From a virus (taxonomy: Duplodnaviria; Heunggongvirae; Uroviricota; Caudoviricetes): a stretch of 9,471 nucleotides of DNA. The stretch lies in the IMG/VR virus record IMGVR_UViG_2534681810_000007, positions 1-9,471 of that record. One strand, written 5' to 3'. The stretch's first letter is position 1; each line of letters starts with the position of its first letter. The notes below the pieces were generated by a model. The model made no database searches, was not told the origin of the DNA, and worked only from the letters and a program-made list of their open reading frames with translations. Shown piece after piece: positions 768-9,471 of this stretch. Position numbers and translations under genes: made by a program.

Positions 768-1205
768 TTATTTTAAGCACTGCGTCCTGATGTATTCCTG
801 CAGGTAGTTAACCTGCGCGGTTATCTTGTCGATTCCACCTCGGAGACGGTAATAATTGAGTTCAGCATCTGCTGTAAGTCCTGGGCTTTCTCCATCGCCC
901 ATGCTGCTGGCTCCGGTCGTTGACTTTGCACAGGTGGCGGAGACTTGCAGGCGCTTACGCCCAGCAGAAACATCAGCACGGAGACTTTCGATAGTCGCAT
1001 TAGCATCAGCAAGCTCCTTTGTGTATCTGGCGTCGAGTTCTGCTACATCACGTTGACGCTTCTGCATGTCAGCGATGATGGATGTGGCTTTGTCGCGCTG
1101 GTCTTTGTAGGCGATGGCGTTATCACGGTAATGATTAACAGCCCATGACAGGCAGAGGATGATGCAAATAACCAGAGCGGAGATAATCGCGGTTACCCTG
1201 CTCAT
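768..1205 (-). CDS. Rz: Rz i-spanin (inner-membrane spanin subunit)
   Basis: Translation [36 protein letters not shown]... is nearly collinear with lambda Rz as I recall it. N-terminal TM helix followed by a coiled-coil-like periplasmic region. Start ATG at 1205..1203 overlaps the endolysin TGA stop (ATGA). Confidence 0.9.
821..1006 (-). CDS. Rz1: Rz1 o-spanin (outer-membrane lipoprotein), embedded in Rz in the +1 frame
   Basis: 61 aa, [27 protein letters not shown]...: signal peptide, lipobox-like VSAC and a proline-rich mature region, typical of Rz1. AGGAG lies 7 nt upstream of the ATG at 1006. Entirely inside Rz in another frame. Confidence 0.85.
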
Positions 1206-1699
1206 TGCTGCCCCCACAAACAGACTTCACGCTCAATATCACGACGGGTCATCAGCCCTTTCCATTGCTTACCGCCAGCGTATGTCCAGCGACGTAGCTG
1301 GTCACATGCGCCTTTGATATCACCCTGGTTTATTTTGCGAAGAAGCGTCGATGTTCTGAAATTACCAGCGCCCACGTTGTAAACGAACGAGTAAAGAGCG
1401 CCGCGCGTTGTTTCCGGTATATCGACTTTGATGTACGGGTTAATTTGTCTGGCGACCGTGGCAAGGTCTTTATTCAGGAGGGCTTTGCATTCTGCTTCGG
1501 TATACGTTTTACCGGGAATGATGTCTTTTCCGGTGTGTCCGTGACATACAGTCCATACGCCAACGATATCTTCGTATGGTATGTAGCTGACACCTTCCAG
1601 GCCATCGTCACCACTCGGACCAGTGATGAGCACAGACGCTATGGCAACAGCCCCACCACCAATAGCAGCAGCAACAGCCTTGCGTAATGATGGCGACAT
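1202..1699 (-). CDS. R: SAR endolysin (phage-21 R-type lysozyme with signal-anchor-release domain)
   Basis: 165 aa. N-terminal Gly/Ala-rich weakly hydrophobic SAR segment ([18 protein letters not shown]), then [24 protein letters not shown] with the E-D-T lysozyme catalytic arrangement. Near-identical to phage 21 R as I recall it. Start ATG 1699..1697 overlaps the holin stop. Confidence 0.92.
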
Positions 1700-1914
1700 T
1701 ATTCACCTCTCGCAGCCTTACGCTTATCTTCTTTAATCTTGAAATAAAGGTTTGTCAGATACGTCAGCAAGCCAAACACCAGGCTACCCAATACGCCTAT
1801 TGCCACCCACTGGGATGGGGAGACTTTGTCCAGCAACTGCAGTAGCCAGTATCCCGTCCCCACCGCTGACGTGGTGTATGACACACCTGTTGTTATTTTT
1901 TCCATCTGGTACAT
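1699..1914 (-). CDS. S: Pinholin (phage-21 S-type class II holin) with dual-start motif
   Basis: From the ATG at 1914 the product is 71 aa, [71 protein letters not shown]: two TM segments and a charged C-terminus, matching S21. GGGAGA lies 6 nt upstream. A second in-frame Met three codons later (M-Y-Q-M) is the holin/antiholin dual-start arrangement. The longer track ORF from 1959 has no ribosome-binding site. Confidence 0.88.
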
Positions 1915-1942
1915 ACCCCGTCTCCCGTTATCCGGAAGCTGA

Positions 1943-1977
1943 CAACAATAAAAAGCCACCAGTTAATTCCTGATGGC
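1943..1977 (-). terminator. Intrinsic terminator immediately upstream of the lysis cassette
   Basis: Minus-strand RNA would form an 8-bp stem GCCAUCAG / CUGGUGGC (one G.U) with a 7-nt loop, followed by UUUUUAUUGUUG. It lies about 30 nt upstream of the pinholin start. Confidence 0.6.
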
Positions 1978-2350: not shown

Positions 2351-2779
2351 GAACTCACAAGGAAAATGATAGAAGGAAATAACATTAGTGATGTACGCAT
2401 GGCGCCTCCCGCTAAGTTCTGCAATGATCAAACAGAACTCGCTACGTGCCCTTAAAACTCGATCATTTAGCCCCTCCAAGGAGGATTCACCATGCGGTTG
2501 ATTTTTTAATAAACAGTAAACAAAAAAGTCAAGAATTATTCATTCTGTTCTTTCATCATCGGCCACAGCAATACCACAATGCCGCAGACCAGAGCGCCAT
2601 CAGTCAGTACCAACATTATCCTGCTGGTGAAATCCATCATCACCATCACTAAAAGCAGGATCACAACAGCAAGCAGACACAGTTTATAAAACAATGTTCA
2701 GAAAACGCATTCAGCATGCCTAAGGTTCTATTCCTACGAATAGCCAACTTGCAACTTAAAATATTATTTATGCAGCCAA

Positions 2780-3538
2780 TTAAATTCTGGTCCTTACAAT
2801 ATCAACCTGAAGATTCTTATCTTGTGCTGATTGATAAATGACAAACCTTTTACTACCTGCATTGAAAGAAGTAGACAAAACCAGACAATTATCATAACGA
2901 GCAAGAACATAATACCAACCATCATTATAATTAATCATTTCATATTCTTTCTTAAACTGCGGTTTGTAATATCCTGTCAGAAATGAAAAAAGCCAGAAAT
3001 ATGCCACAAAAGCAATCATCACAATCTCAAAAAAATGTTTTTTTATAAATGGCTTATCATAGAAGCATGATACCGATAAAAATCGCCCATAAGATCTTAT
3101 CGAAATTGTAACCGCCAGCGCAATCGCTGCTGACAGTAGCAAAAGAGGTACCTGAATCTTCTGTCTCAATATAGAAAACTCAATAATTGCCGGCACAAAC
3201 AATAATTCCACAGCAAAATAAAGGCGAAATACATTTAGCTCTTGCATAGAATGTTTTCTTTTCACTGCGAAAAAGAATACAACACCAATACCCCAACCGA
3301 TAAGAAATATAGCAATGACGATAACTGCAAAAAATAAACTTCTGGCAACATCATCAACACCTGCACCTACAATCCACCATGGGAAGCCGTAGTAAAAAGA
3401 AGTACCCCATCCATAGAAATAAGCACTCCCCCATCCAAGGCATCCCATGTAGGCAATAAAAAGTGAAGAACTCCTGAGCAGCGCACCATCCTTCATAACC
3501 ACCCCAATACAAGATGATAACATTGGCTTACAACTCAT
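2780..3538 (-). CDS. Hypothetical multi-pass membrane protein of unknown function (AT-rich moron between pR' and the lysis genes)
   Basis: 252-aa ORF with about five hydrophobic helices rich in aromatic and Gly residues, and a ~60-aa hydrophilic C-terminal tail. The segment is visibly more AT-rich than the flanking phage genes. I recognise no family. Start is uncertain: the ATGs at 3538, 3523 and 3496 all lack a good Shine-Dalgarno sequence. Confidence 0.6.
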   Translation of the reverse strand: MSCKPMLSSCIGVVMKDGALLRSSSLFIAYMGCLGWGSAYFYGWGTSFYYGFPWWIVGAGVDDVARSLFFAVIVIAIFLIGWGIGVVFFFAVKRKHSMQELNVFRLYFAVELLFVPAIIEFSILRQKIQVPLLLLSAAIALAVTISIRSYGRFLSVSCFYDKPFIKKHFFEIVMIAFVAYFWLFSFLTGYYKPQFKKEYEMINYNDGWYYVLARYDNCLVLSTSFNAGSKRFVIYQSAQDKNLQVDIVRTRI

Positions 3539-3774: not shown

Positions 3775-4398
3775 CTAACGTGTGATCGCATTCAAAATGT
3801 TGTCTGCGATTGACTCTTCCTTGTGGCATTGCACAACCAGAGCGTCATACAGCGGCTTAACAGTGCGTGACCAGGTGGGTTGGGTAAGGTTTGGGATTAG
3901 CATCGTCACAGCGCGATATGCGGCGCTTGCTGGCATTCTTGAATAACCGACGCCTTTACATCTTCCGCACTCTTTCTCAGCAACTCTCCCCCACAGCTCT
4001 GTTTTGGCTATATCAACCGCACGGCCTGTACCGTGGCAATCTCTGCATCTTGCGCCCGGCGTAGCGGCACTACGGCAATAATCCGCATAAGCGAATGTTG
4101 CGAGCACTTGCAGTACCTTTGCCTTAGTATTTCCTTCAAGCTTTGCCACGCCACGGTATTTCCCCGATACCTTGTGTGCAAATTGCATCAGATAGTTGAT
4201 AGCCTTTTGTTTGTCGTTCTGGCTGAGTTCGTGCTTACCACAGAATACAGCCATTCCGAATCCGGCTTGTGATTGCGCCATCCCCATAGCAGCCATCACA
4301 TCAGTACCGGAAAGAGAGTCAGAAGCCGTGGCCCGTGGTGAGTCGCTCATCATCGGGCTTTTTGGCGAATGAAATTTAGCTATGCTTTCGAGTCTCAT
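3775..4398 (-). CDS. Q: Late-gene antiterminator Q (lambda Q type)
   Basis: 207 aa, [50 protein letters not shown]..., essentially identical to lambda Q by recall, including the Cys-rich zinc-binding region (CRDCHGTGR...CGRCKGVGY). Start ATG overlaps the phosphatase stop. Confidence 0.95.
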
Positions 4399-5840: not shown

Positions 5841-6019
5841 CTTGTTTTCCTCGCACGTTCTCTAAGCCACCGGATATCCCACAGGTGAGCCGTGTAGTTG
5901 AAGGTTTTTACGTCAGATTCTTTTGGGATTGGCTTGCGTTTATTTCTGGAGCGTTTCGTTGGAAGGTATTTGCAGTTTTCGCAGATGATGTCGGTGAAAC
6001 TTCGTCGCTGTCGTCTCAT
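5837..6019 (-). CDS. ninE: NinE protein
   Basis: 60 aa from the ATG at 6019, [60 protein letters not shown], matching lambda NinE. AGGAGG lies 5 nt upstream. The longer track ORF from 6064 has no ribosome-binding site. ATGA overlap with the ninB stop. Confidence 0.85.
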
Positions 6020-6426
6020 TCGTACCTCCTGTCGGTAAATCTGACACCCTGACCAATAGCCCATGCTGTCGTGTACTCAATCAGACTTGCCATACGCTTC
6101 ACACTCATCTGCGCGCTGCTTTCGCGAATGTTGACGCATTCGCCTTCAAGCCCGGGTAAAACATCAGCTTCCTGTTTCGTTGCCACTGCATGACCGCTTA
6201 TCAACAAAACCTTCCATTGTTCTGGTTTTAACCATTTGCCGCGCCACTGAACTTGCCTAGCGATATCTGCGACCATCGCGTGAAATTTTGCGTTCTGGTC
6301 AAGGTTGCGCTTGTAGTCAGTAATGCGGATGGTAACTGGCTTGTCTTTATCGAGTGGTGTTGCGAGGATGGCGTTGATTGCGGCTTGCTGTTGTTGCTTA
6401 GTTCGGAGGAAGATTGTTTGCTTCAT
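6016..6426 (-). CDS. ninB: NinB / Orf-family recombination mediator
   Basis: 136 aa. The block [35 protein letters not shown] aligns with lambda NinB RSLDQNRKLWACLGDVSRQVEWHGRWLDAESWKCVF (recalled). GAGG lies 5 nt upstream of the ATG at 6426. Confidence 0.8.
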
Positions 6427-6433
6427 CGTTACC

Positions 6434-6640
6434 TCAACTCACAAAACGCCACGCCACTTTTGCTACGACAACAGGCATAACACCGATAATCACCCACAGG
6501 AAAATGCTACCGAAAAGCACACCAACCAGGTCTTTACCTTCGCCTACCAGCCGGACAAAACTGCTGGCAACCACAATGAACGTCGCCACCATCCACATAG
6601 CACCGAGAATCCTCAATGCAGAAAAAATCAACTCAACCAC
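6434..6640 (-). CDS. Hypothetical small two-helix membrane protein (68 aa)
   Basis: MVELIFSALRILGAMWMVATFIVVASSFVRLVGEGKDLVGVLFGSIFLWVIIGVMPVVVAKVAWRFVS: two hydrophobic helices separated by a short charged loop. GGGGGAGAG lies 6 nt upstream of the ATG. It sits between the tR2-like terminator and ninB, and its stop is 8 nt before the ninB start. Confidence 0.6.
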   Translation of the reverse strand: MVELIFSALRILGAMWMVATFIVVASSFVRLVGEGKDLVGVLFGSIFLWVIIGVMPVVVAKVAWRFVS

Positions 6641-6650
6641 GATTTACTCT

Positions 6651-6687
6651 CCCCCAAATAAAAAGGCCTGCGATTACCAGCAGGCCT
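6651..6687 (-). terminator. tR2-like intrinsic terminator downstream of ren
   Basis: AGGCCTGC / GCAGGCCT 8-bp stem with an 8-nt loop. On the minus strand it is followed by TTTTATTTGG. This matches the lambda terminator that precedes ninB, as I recall it. Confidence 0.65.
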
Positions 6688-6712
6688 GTTACAAGCTCAG
6701 TGATGTAGATGG

Positions 6713-7003
6713 TCATCTTTTAACTCCATATACCGCCAATACCCGTTTCATCGCGGCACTCTGGCGACACTCCTTAAAAATTAGGTTCGTGCTCATCTTT
6801 CCTTCCCGTTCTTCCTTGGTAGCAAACCGGTAATACACCGTTCGCCAGACCTTACCTTCGATAACCAGAAGACCTGCCCGTGCCATTTTAGCCGCGGCCT
6901 GATTTATGCTGGTTACTGTTGCGCCTGTTAGCGCGGCAACGTCCGGCGCACAGAAGCTATTATGCGTCCCCAGGTAATGAATAATTGCCTCTTTGCCCGT
7001 CAT
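6713..7003 (-). CDS. ren: Ren protein (Rex-exclusion resistance)
   Basis: 96 aa, MTGKEAIIHYLGTHNSFCAPDVAALTGATVTSINQAAAKMARAGLLVIEGKVWRTVYYRFATKEEREGKMSTNLIFKECRQSAAMKRVLAVYGVKR, near-identical to lambda Ren by recall. ATGA overlap with the P stop. Confidence 0.9.
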   Translation of the reverse strand: MTGKEAIIHYLGTHNSFCAPDVAALTGATVTSINQAAAKMARAGLLVIEGKVWRTVYYRFATKEEREGKMSTNLIFKECRQSAAMKRVLAVYGVKR

Positions 7004-7243
7004 ACACTTGCTCCTTTCAGTCCGAACTTAGCTTTGAGTTCTGCGATCTTCGCCAGAGCCTGTGCACGATTTAGAGGTCTACCGCCCATGACAGGAAGTT
7101 GTTTTACTGGTTCAGGGATCGCCTCACCACGGTTAATTCTCGCAGTCATATGGACAAGCTCATCTGCGGCCTTACGGCGTAATTCCGCATCAGTAAGCGC
7201 ATTGGCCCGCATGTTCTGATACAGGTTGGTAACCAGCCAGTAG
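7000..7243 (-). pseudogene. P: Replication protein P, 3' fragment only (truncated at the IS boundary)
   Basis: The reading frame ends ...ELRRKAADELVHMTARINRGEAIPEPVKQLPVMGGRPLNRAQALAKIAELKAKFGLKGASV, matching the lambda P C-terminus. The first 9 codons of the track ORF 7000..7269 lie inside the IS inverted repeat, so only about the last 80 codons of P remain. Confidence 0.8.
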
Positions 7244-7315
7244 TGTAGTGGCACACTGAATTTGGCCACCTGAACAGAGGTGATATGCTCACCTCAGAAC
7301 AACACAGGTGCTCCA

Positions 7316-8484
<1,169 letters not shown>

Positions 8485-8493
8485 CCACTACAT

Positions 8494-9471
8494 AAAGAGT
8501 TCGGATTAGGCAGAGACAGACGTATAGCAATCACTGAAGCTATACAGGCCAATATTGAGTTGCTATCCGGGAACAGGCGTGAGTCACTGATAGACAGAAT
8601 TAAAGGCGCTGACGCAATCACTCTTCATGCGTGGCTTGACCGATATGAAACAATCCTCAGCGAGAGGGGTATCAGGCCGAAAACTCTACTCGACTACGCC
8701 AGCAAAATCAGGGCAATCCGAAGAAAATTGCCGGACAAACCGCTCGCTGACATATCAACGAAAGAGGTGGCAGCAATGCTAAACACCTACGTAGCAGAAG
8801 GTAAAGCGGCTTCCGCAAAATTAATCAGGTCAACCCTTGTTGACGTTTTTCGTGAGGCAATAGCCGAGGGGCATGTGGCTACGAATCCGGTAACAGCAAC
8901 CCGCACAGCAAAGTCAGAAGTAAGGCGCTCAAGGCTGACAGCTAATGAGTATGTCGCGATTCACCATGCAGCCGAACCTCTCCCAATCTGGCTGAGGCTT
9001 GCGATGGATTTGGCCGTCGTTACAGGTCAGAGAGTCGGCGATTTGTGCAAAATGAAATGGTCAGACATAAACGACAACCATCTTCACATTGAACAGGGTA
9101 AAACAGGGGCTAAGCTCGCCATTCCGCTGACGCTAACGATTGACGCGCTCAATATCTCATTGGCCGATACACTACAGAAATGCAGGGAGGTCAGCGGCAG
9201 TGAAACAATAATTGCATCAACGCATCACGAACCGCTTTCCCCGAAAACAGTATCTAAGTATTTTACAAAGGCGAGAAATGCATCTGGACTCTCATTTGAT
9301 GGAGACCCGCCAACATTCCATGAACTGCGTAGCCTGTCGGCGAGGCTATACCGGAATCAGATTGGCGATAAGTTTGCTCAACGTCTTCTCGGGCATAAAT
9401 CAGATTCAATGGCGGCGCGGTATAGGGACAGCCGAGGGAGAGAATGGGACAAAATTGAAATCAACAAATGA
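8494..9471 (+). pseudogene. int: Lambda-family tyrosine integrase lacking its N-terminus (about 34 codons removed at the IS junction)
   Basis: Translation from 8494 reads KEFGLGRDRRIAITEAIQANIELLSGNRRESLIDRIKGADAITLHAWLDRYE... and ends ...RGREWDKIEINK with a TGA at 9469..9471, collinear with lambda Int from about residue 35. Catalytic-domain residues appear present (GQRVGDLC, HELRSLSARLY, LLGHKSD, MAARYRD). There is no native start codon; the first in-frame start is a TTG at 8560. Confidence 0.85.

Follow-up and report, generated by a model that had tools for sequence, protein, structure and literature searches.

orf68, a conserved small gene for a predicted two-helix membrane protein between the tR2 terminator and ninB of lambdoid phages

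A 68-codon open reading frame, designated orf68, lies between the tR2 intrinsic terminator and ninB in a defective lambdoid prophage (the window, i.e., the whole 9,471-nt stretch of DNA that was analyzed). Comparison of related loci shows that orf68 is a protein-coding gene under purifying selection, and that its family is common, patchily distributed and dispensable, while structure modeling assigns the predicted product to the helical-hairpin fold class. The family is an already catalogued one of unknown function (PHROG 1165). With slightly better than even confidence, we read orf68 as a conserved, non-essential accessory gene of lambdoid and P22-like Enterobacterales phages, encoding a delayed-early two-helix inner-membrane protein.

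Layout and expression of the tR2-ninB interval

The phage genes of the window are on the minus strand, in the order P remnant, ren, ninA, orf68 and ninB. Features of the interval and its surroundings are as follows:

7280-8484, plus strand: IS3, which truncates the P remnant
7000-7269, minus strand: replication gene P, C-terminal remnant cut by IS3 (Pfam Phage_lambda_P, profile positions 112-162 only)
6713-7003, minus strand: ren, the gene 5' of orf68 (PHROG 142; 98% to lambda Ren by BLASTP)
6633-6716, minus strand: ninA mini-ORF, 27 aa, MTIYITELVTGLLVIAGLFIWGRVNRG (sequence; NinA in the HK630 and HK620 annotations)
6656-6687, minus strand: tR2 intrinsic terminator, with an 8-bp G+C-rich stem and 8-nt loop at 6664-6687 and a T-tract at 6656-6663 (terminator scan, RNA fold)
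6647-6655, minus strand: Shine-Dalgarno sequence of orf68, GGGGGAGAG, 6 nt 5' of the GTG (sequence, lambda comparison)
6434-6640, minus strand: orf68, 68-codon coding sequence with GTG start and TGA stop, two-helix membrane protein (open reading frame list, PHROG 1165)
6554-6610, minus strand: orf68 codons 11-29, predicted transmembrane helix 1, ILGAMWMVATFIVVASSFV, which holds the invariant W16 (hydropathy, AlphaFold2, alignment)
6461-6529, minus strand: orf68 codons 38-60, predicted transmembrane helix 2, with W49 and G53 invariant and P56 and V57 near-invariant (hydropathy, AlphaFold2, alignment)
6432-6435, minus strand: GAGG Shine-Dalgarno sequence of ninB, overlapping the orf68 stop (TGA, 6434-6436) (sequence)
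6016-6426, minus strand: ninB, HK620/P22-type allele, the next gene 3' of orf68 (Pfam NinB, E 4e-55)

The first-pass annotation had described a tR2-like terminator followed by a ribosome-binding site, a 68-aa hydrophobic reading frame and ninB, and all four elements were found in that order and at the positions it had assigned to them. Its reading frame for orf68 was also correct, although the start codon is GTG rather than ATG and the 27-codon ninA mini-ORF had been overlooked. Similarly, the close adjacency of orf68 to ninB stands, but the spacer from the orf68 TGA to the ninB ATG (6426) is 7 nt (GGTAACG), not 8 nt. The tR2 hairpin, AGGCCTGC-TGGTAATC-GCAGGCCT at 6664-6687 with the tail TTTTATTT at 6656-6663, was the sole terminator-like site detected by a terminator scan of positions 5900-7400 and is the centroid structure in RNA folding. 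The HK620 record labels the same hairpin "terminator tR2", and the annotation of HK75 also marks tR2/terminator there.

The whole of the tR2 terminator is contained within the ninA mini-ORF, whose ATG overlaps the ren stop codon (ATGA) and whose TGA overlaps codons 2-3 of orf68. In the window as in lambda, the mini-ORF links ren with the gene that follows. NinA of lambda, P22 and HK620 resembles orf68 in being a small, hydrophobic, non-essential nin-region reading frame, adjoining orf68 and translationally overlapping it. However, ninA is a separate reading frame in another frame (6633-6716 vs. 6434-6640), and lambda has NinA only. Identification of orf68 as NinA was therefore rejected, since the 26-27-codon reading frame that begins at the ren or P stop codon and holds the tR2 hairpin sits separately. 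One database row places the NinA label over the orf68 area.

From the ninA ATG through the hairpin, the T-tract and GGGGGAGAG, the window is identical to lambda base for base. In lambda, GGGGGAGAG is followed by GGAAGTCATGAAAAAA, which is the start of ninB, so that the same Shine-Dalgarno sequence serves ninB in lambda and orf68 in the window; the earlier statement that lambda tR2 and its ribosome-binding site lead directly into ninB is thus correct by the lambda sequence. Since identity to the lambda protein is 98% for the window Ren but only 38% for the window NinB, homology to lambda ends just past the Shine-Dalgarno sequence, and DNA 3' of this point matches the nin modules of HK75, HK629/630, mEpX1 and HK620 type. 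By these similarities, the junction is a classical lambdoid mosaic boundary with an HK620/HK75-type nin module beyond it. The description of orf68 as "inserted" is consequently imprecise, as the interval did not arise by a simple insertion into a lambda backbone.

A scan for consensus sigma-70-like promoters across 5900-7400 on both strands found no promoter-like site, although weak promoters could escape such a scan. Together with the sequence identity to lambda, this agrees with the earlier placement of orf68 after lambda tR2 in the pR delayed-early operon. In lambda, tR2 is located in the region deleted by nin5, loss of which makes Q expression N-independent. Considering its place behind tR2, its lambda Shine-Dalgarno sequence and the lack of a promoter of its own, orf68 would be delayed-early in a complete phage, made only when N allows read-through of tR2, and its translation would form part of a tight chain running from ren through ninA and orf68 to ninB. 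In the prophage studied here, IS3 and an integrase pseudogene replace everything 5' of the P remnant, and the immunity/N/O region, pR and N are missing (Pfam; RefSeq annotation of RM14723), as the first-pass annotation had concluded for N. With pR and N gone and no replacement promoter detected, orf68 is probably silent in this defective prophage, where it would be an unexpressed passenger.

Evidence that orf68 is a protein-coding gene

The orf68 product matched PHROG 1165 with an E value of 6.7e-36, residues 1-68 aligning with positions 1-68 of the 68-position profile, and the distant relatives P0143, P0133 and P0132 matched the same family. It is identical to RefSeq WP_000229808.1, a PGAP "hypothetical protein" of E. 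coli RM14723, in which the locus is 100% identical to that of the window. A set of 84 related loci was compared, made up of the RM14723 locus, 80 loci on IMG/VR contigs and three from phage records, and in every one of them orf68 was 68 codons long and open. These loci included 38 distinct DNA variants, in all of which the orf68 frame was open, and in none of which either of the two other sense frames was; the antisense frames were open in 34, 15 and 0 of the 38, respectively. The dN/dS ratio was 0.32 in the close set of loci and 0.26-0.35 when the window was compared to the HK620, H-19B and Salmonella alleles, at 57-66% nucleotide identity. Since the wobble-sharing antisense frame gave a similar ratio (0.33), dN/dS is not decisive by itself, and as far as sequence comparison goes, the choice between sense and antisense is settled by the stop-codon counts together with the distant homologues. 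Likewise, a length of 68 codons is within chance, as the open reading frame list for the window holds 76 frames of ≥40 aa; it is conservation that shows orf68 to be real.

When 1.84 billion representative proteins were scanned exhaustively with HMMER, only 17 matches were returned, including proteins of 63-68 aa at 31-39% identity. A profile search added Salmonella and Escherichia relatives at 43-57% identity, as well as one protein at 32% identity encoded by a metagenome-assembled Pantoea genome. All relatives in the range of 30-57% identity have 63-68 aa. In a 26-sequence alignment, W16, W49, G53, K61 and W64 are invariant, and F21, V32, G35, D37, I52, P56 and V57 are near-invariant. The Shine-Dalgarno sequence is kept as GGGGGAGAG or GGGGGAGGG in related loci, and the start position is retained behind the same Shine-Dalgarno sequence, as GTG in the E. 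coli group and as ATG in Salmonella, a pattern that favors a length of 68 aa over the 52 aa annotated in HK630. Taken together, the PHROG 1165 match, the dN/dS ratios, the open frames and the AlphaFold2 model described below bear out the original description of orf68 as a genuine gene for a small protein that has two hydrophobic helices. Lack of conservation at the protein level, which had been named as the observation that would count against it, was looked for and not found, with dN/dS at ~0.3 and the gene intact in 84/84 loci.

Distribution and mosaic context

By tblastn, the family was present in 107 of 50,697 phage records. Carriers include HK022 (91%), HK75, HK629/630, mEpX1, Kapi1, phiv205-1 and 48 Stx2a-converting phages, with more distant copies in HK620 (59%), H-19B (53%) and P22-like Salmonella phages (~43%). 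Both siphoviruses (HK022, HK75, mEpX1) and podoviruses (HK620, Kapi1, P22-like and Stx2a phages) are represented, with differing replication and lysis modules. Among 5426 complete E. coli genomes, 448 (8%) carry the close allele, which is always chromosomal and labeled "hypothetical" or "membrane" protein; the few "plasmid" matches are ~40-kb or Mb-sized records within the plasmid collection. These figures do not support the treatment of orf68 as a peculiarity of this prophage, since it is evidently a widespread cassette. The comparison of the tR2-ninB interval across lambdoid phages that had been proposed at the outset found the same slot occupied in HK022, HK75, HK620 and others. HK022 gp58, HK75 gp43, mEpX1_049 and Stx2-86 gp69 belong to the same family, are 91-97% identical, have the same length and occupy the same place after tR2, although the gene directly 3' of orf68 in HK022 and in the Stx phages encodes a PHROG 343 protein and not NinB as in the window. 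The HK620 homologue falls where the record leaves the stretch from ninA/tR2 to ninB without annotation, and the H-19B homologue, also unannotated, carries an in-frame stop at codon 15. Sequence comparison found no orf68 in lambda. Since lambda lacks the gene and the H-19B copy is nonsense, orf68 is dispensable. The ylcH gene of the K-12 prophage DLP12, located just upstream of ybcN in a region with ninE, ybcO and rusA, was considered as a remnant of the family and rejected, its product being hydrophilic and unrelated.

Two allele types were distinguished, type A (window, HK022, HK75) and type B (HK620, H-19B, mEp213), which differ mainly in residues 4-48. Their tails and flanking DNA are nearly identical, and recombinants between them exist (e.g., P0153).

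The limits of homology among the related loci coincide with gene boundaries. Upstream, homology stops exactly at the ninA ATG, beyond which at least six different genes occur, including ren, a lambda-type P and a DnaB-type helicase (annotated phages). Downstream, homology stops exactly at the orf68 stop codon, and the next gene in the 84 loci is ninB in 36 (the window among them), the gene for a PHROG 343 protein in 42 and a small Cys-rich reading frame in 6. Viewed from the other side, orf68 is found ≤2 kb upstream in 51 of 80 PHROG 343 loci, 36 of them directly adjacent, and the remaining 29 are without it; in 3/3 distant contexts, a PHROG 343 gene is within two genes of the orf68 homologue. 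The slot in the lambdoid/P22-like early-right operon is occupied also in HK75, HK630, mEpX1, HK022, HK620, Salmonella and metagenomic contigs. A 44%-identical Salmonella homologue follows a DnaB-type helicase gene behind the same ninA/tR2 element, and Salmonella also has in-frame ninA::orf68 fusions of 93-94 aa (P0146, P0147), one of which was present on 47 contigs. On metagenomic contigs, relatives that share 33% and 38% identity directly follow replication genes, near ninX, ninF or ninH, and neither a tR2-like terminator nor ninA was found upstream of them. Since these distant relatives lack tR2, the conserved property of the family is that of a first accessory gene after replication, rather than that of a gene behind a terminator. 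Given the varying neighbors, orf68 was judged not to be tied to any one replication, lysis or tail module. The tR2-ninB junction can thus be viewed as a mosaic accessory slot.

The predicted protein and its possible roles

The orf68 protein has a GRAVY of +1.60, with hydrophobic stretches at residues ~11-29 and 38-60 separated by GEGKD. AlphaFold2, run with the 26-sequence alignment, predicted a helical hairpin (pLDDT 91.8, pTM 0.70) with helices at 2-33 and 38-67. The C-terminal tail, KVAWRFVS, is 8 aa long with a charge of +2 and includes the invariant K61 and W64. In 12 non-redundant members, the N-terminal segment averaged 1.0 K+R and the C-terminal tail 1.75, acidic residues being few in both, compared to 1.67 K+R in the turn, where D+E averaged 1.5. 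By charge counting alone under the positive-inside rule, the protein is probably oriented N-in/C-in with the G35-K-D37 turn in the periplasm. Conservation in helix 2 has an alpha-helical periodicity (p ~0.03 vs. shuffles, a weak statistic), and that in helix 1 was not significant. The resulting stripe, G45-W49-G53-P56/V57-K61-W64, looks like a helix-packing or partner-binding face.

Searches for known relatives returned little. Pfam and NCBIfam scans of orf68 and its relatives yielded no family above threshold, PADLOC run on orf68 and four distant relatives gave no match at E up to 1, a PDB sequence-profile search with orf68 gave none at E up to 10, and fold searches with the orf68 model recovered generic hairpins only. 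Sub-threshold matches to T4SS_pilin, DUF202 and DUF6773, all two-helix families, were judged compositional and rejected. For the VirB2-like type IV secretion pilin family PF18895, 9 of 26 members matched below threshold (best E 0.0015), the window protein not among them, and two members scored individually reached 11.8 and 13.5 bits against a gathering score of 26.6 bits; the simplest explanation for these matches lies in composition, the protein being a hydrophobic hairpin of two helices. An Rfam scan of the window found no RNA family and no toxin-antitoxin RNA, and a tRNA scan found no tRNA. A literature search retrieved no paper on orf68 or PHROG 1165, the nin-region literature covering ninA, the ATGA-linked nin genes and their dispensability.

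As to function, we tentatively propose that orf68 binds and modulates an inner-membrane partner stoichiometrically during lytic growth. The conserved helix-2 face and the interfacial segment at the C-terminus (the stripe described above) would make the contact, the partner would be a host or phage inner-membrane protein, and orf68 itself would be neither pore nor enzyme. Stoichiometric binding is proposed since the protein is too small for catalysis and its conservation is residue-specific, not merely hydrophobic; a host target is favored since orf68 is independent of replication, lysis and tail modules. MgrB, AcrZ, SgrT and MgtS are very small helical inner-membrane proteins, mostly single-helix and chromosomal, that bind a larger membrane protein. 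The likeness of orf68 to these is in the proposed mode of action only, as there is no sequence relationship. However, partner binding is a generic default for small membrane proteins, and self-oligomerization could account for orf68 as easily. A more doubtful extension of the partner-binding proposal would make PHROG 1165 a new class of delayed-early two-helix effector whose action is to inactivate one specific inner-membrane protein of the host, or else a defense or exclusion system located in the membrane. Alleles A (window/HK022) and B (HK620/H-19B) would then have different target specificities, and expression might be gated by translation of ninA through the tR2 hairpin.

For the roles suggested in the first-pass annotation, host killing, exclusion or depolarization, the analysis yielded no supporting observation, and they are at this point speculation. 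We consider superinfection exclusion during the lytic phase unlikely; here orf68 would block DNA entry or a membrane step of secondary phages, in principle as T4 Imm does. T4 Imm, P22 SieA and HK97 gp15 are phage membrane exclusion proteins, the first made early in lytic infection, and like orf68 they are small phage inner-membrane proteins. A small two-helix membrane protein made early in infection would suit such a role, the neighboring ren is classed as exclusion-related (PHROG 142), and two alleles deeply diverged in residues 4-48, with near-identical flanks and intragenic recombinants, are what conflict specificity proteins can look like. However, no sequence or profile similarity to these or other known exclusion or defense proteins was found, dN/dS of ~0.3 between the allele types indicates no diversifying selection, and orf68 is found in phages with different tails and entry routes. 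Moreover, classical temperate-phage exclusion genes are expressed from the repressed prophage and have their own promoter and usually a terminator, whereas orf68, with no promoter and behind a terminator, would not be expressed from a repressed prophage, where such genes normally act. Classification as a moron or prophage superinfection-exclusion gene was rejected for the same reasons, i.e., no promoter-like site, a position directly behind tR2 and coupling to its neighbors.

A host-killing or depolarizing protein, whether holin-like or similar to a type I toxin, had been the leading idea of the earlier annotation and appears slightly less probable still. Class II holins and the pinholin S21-68 have two transmembrane helices, ~65-95 aa and a long, hydrophilic, highly charged C-terminal tail, and are encoded in a late lysis cassette. 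orf68 is very hydrophobic (GRAVY +1.6) and shares its size and two-helix layout with these proteins, S21-68 in particular also being 68 aa with a predicted N-in/C-in topology; in addition, one member of the orf68 family gave a very weak match to a holin family (E 0.6). Nevertheless, orf68 has an 8-residue +2 tail rather than a long charged one, and no Pfam holin match above threshold. Its gene belongs to the early operon and precedes Q, and a separate lysis cassette for a class II holin (1699-1914), endolysin and Rz is present in the window at 768-1959. Assignment as a class II holin was rejected on these grounds. A pore is disfavored more generally since one expressed early, long before lysis, would be self-defeating and abort the infection. 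Type I toxins (Hok, Ldr, TisB, Ibs) are single helices, usually of <60 aa, with their own promoter and an antisense RNA in cis or trans. Considering that orf68 has two helices, 68 aa, no promoter-like site, no toxin-family match above threshold and no Rfam toxin-antitoxin RNA in the window, this class was rejected as well. Moreover, no obvious antidote accompanies the gene in the 448 E. coli genomes that keep it intact.

The genomic neighbors raise the question of a small membrane complex, with orf68 as a subunit alongside the hydrophobic NinA peptide and/or the PHROG 343 (PF26207) protein, a reading that we regard as quite improbable. The overlap of the ninA stop with the orf68 start and the Salmonella ninA::orf68 fusions are consistent with a partnership, as is the frequency of PHROG 343 near orf68 (next in 42/84 loci, within two genes in 3/3 distant contexts, and with orf68 upstream at 51/80 of its own loci). 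Against this, 36 of the 84 orf68 loci, the window included, lead straight to ninB, 29 of 80 PHROG 343 loci are without orf68, and distant homologues have neither ninA nor tR2 upstream; the neighbors may merely share the first nin slot, and the sequence of NinA may follow from that of the terminator hairpin. Finally, the idea that orf68 is a fortuitous, non-functional frame, conserved because of an antisense gene or of an element acting in cis at the RNA or DNA level, can draw on the antisense dN/dS ratio (0.33) and on the gaps in the HK620 and H-19B annotations, but is extremely improbable given a sense frame open in 38/38 variants against 34/38 and 15/38 for antisense frames, motifs, length and hydropathy that persist to 30% protein and 57% nucleotide identity, a conserved Shine-Dalgarno sequence and start position (GTG or ATG), mosaic junctions that coincide with the ends of the reading frame, a confident AlphaFold2 model and no Rfam match.

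orf68 is therefore real, though unannotated in some reference genomes, and its recognition overturns nothing. Model phages (HK022, HK620, HK75) and the clinically important Stx2a-converting phages carry it as one of their uncharacterized small genes. As an early, strongly conserved small membrane protein, its product would be a reasonable candidate for a host-modulating or phage-conflict factor.

Loss of the int-to-P segment, and genes from the antiterminator to the lysis cassette

In window 7000-9471, the replication gene P of the prophage is truncated by an IS3-family element, leaving its last ~89 codons. Beyond this element, the integrase is truncated N-terminally and adjoins mdtA in E. coli RM14723, which carries a 100%-identical locus, and the entire int-to-P segment, including the immunity region, N, and O, is missing. 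Features of 7000-9471 and of the region from the antitermination gene to the lysis cassette were as follows:

7280-7618 (+), IS3-family orfA
7645-8484 (+), IS3-family orfB
3775-4398 (-), antitermination protein, so named by RefSeq
2780-3538 (-), 252-aa multi-pass membrane ORF, located after the antiterminator gene Q and before the holin gene
2536-2694 (-), 52-aa ORF, also between Q and the holin, DUF3927 per RefSeq
768-1959 (-), lysis cassette (class II holin, RrrD-type lysozyme, Rz-like protein)

An NCBIfam scan of the antitermination protein gave no family above threshold, with weak, sub-threshold matches to TIGR02642 and a DnaJ-type zinc-finger stretch. The position downstream of Q is the usual place of "morons" and is occupied here by the 252-aa and 52-aa ORFs, the former having no match in Pfam, NCBIfam, or PADLOC. 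The lysis cassette resembles the phage 21/DLP12 type; its holin is 71 aa as annotated, and its lysozyme has a hydrophobic N-terminus and, by appearance, would be of the signal-anchor-release type.

Alleles and neighbors of orf68

Unannotated homologues of orf68, the 68-codon membrane-protein ORF upstream of ninB (window 6434-6640, -), were found in HK620 (AF335538; locus L091) and H-19B (AF034975; locus L093), in both at about 1195-1401 of the locus. In H-19B the reading frame is interrupted by a stop at codon 15, meaning that either the gene is dispensable there or the old sequence contains an error. When the window gene is compared with these two copies, orf68 falls into two allele types whose divergence is deep, with identities of ~59% (amino acid) and ~66% (nucleotide). 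The types differ in residues 4-48 and have nearly identical flanks, i.e., tR2 upstream and ninB downstream. Intragenic recombinants also occur (e.g., homologue P0153).

The commonest gene downstream of orf68 (42/84 loci) encodes a protein of unknown function, PHROG 343/PF26207 (Phage_phiTE_015), and orf68 lies upstream in 51 of 80 PHROG 343 loci. The protein is absent from the window and stands beside distant orf68 homologues at three loci:

L086, 5386-5673
L089, 6189-6452
L090, 1287-1592

The ninA mini-ORF and tR2

Between ren and orf68 lies a further short ORF:

6633-6716 (-), ninA mini-ORF, 27 aa, hydrophobic

Its start overlaps the ren stop as ATGA, and in related phages the upstream mosaic junction is exactly the ninA ATG. 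In lambda, the same ORF terminates as ATGA on ninB; in the window its TGA overlaps codons 2-3 of orf68. In two Salmonella enterica proteins of 93-94 aa (P0146 and P0147), NinA is fused in frame with the orf68 homologue (MTIYITELITGLLVIAGLFI...MVNWML...), the ORFs being joined via small indels in the G-run or T-run that separates them; one of the two variants occurs on 47 contigs. Since the entire tR2 hairpin and T-tract lie inside ninA in the window, ribosomes translating it would traverse the terminator, and ninA translation could therefore modulate tR2 read-through.
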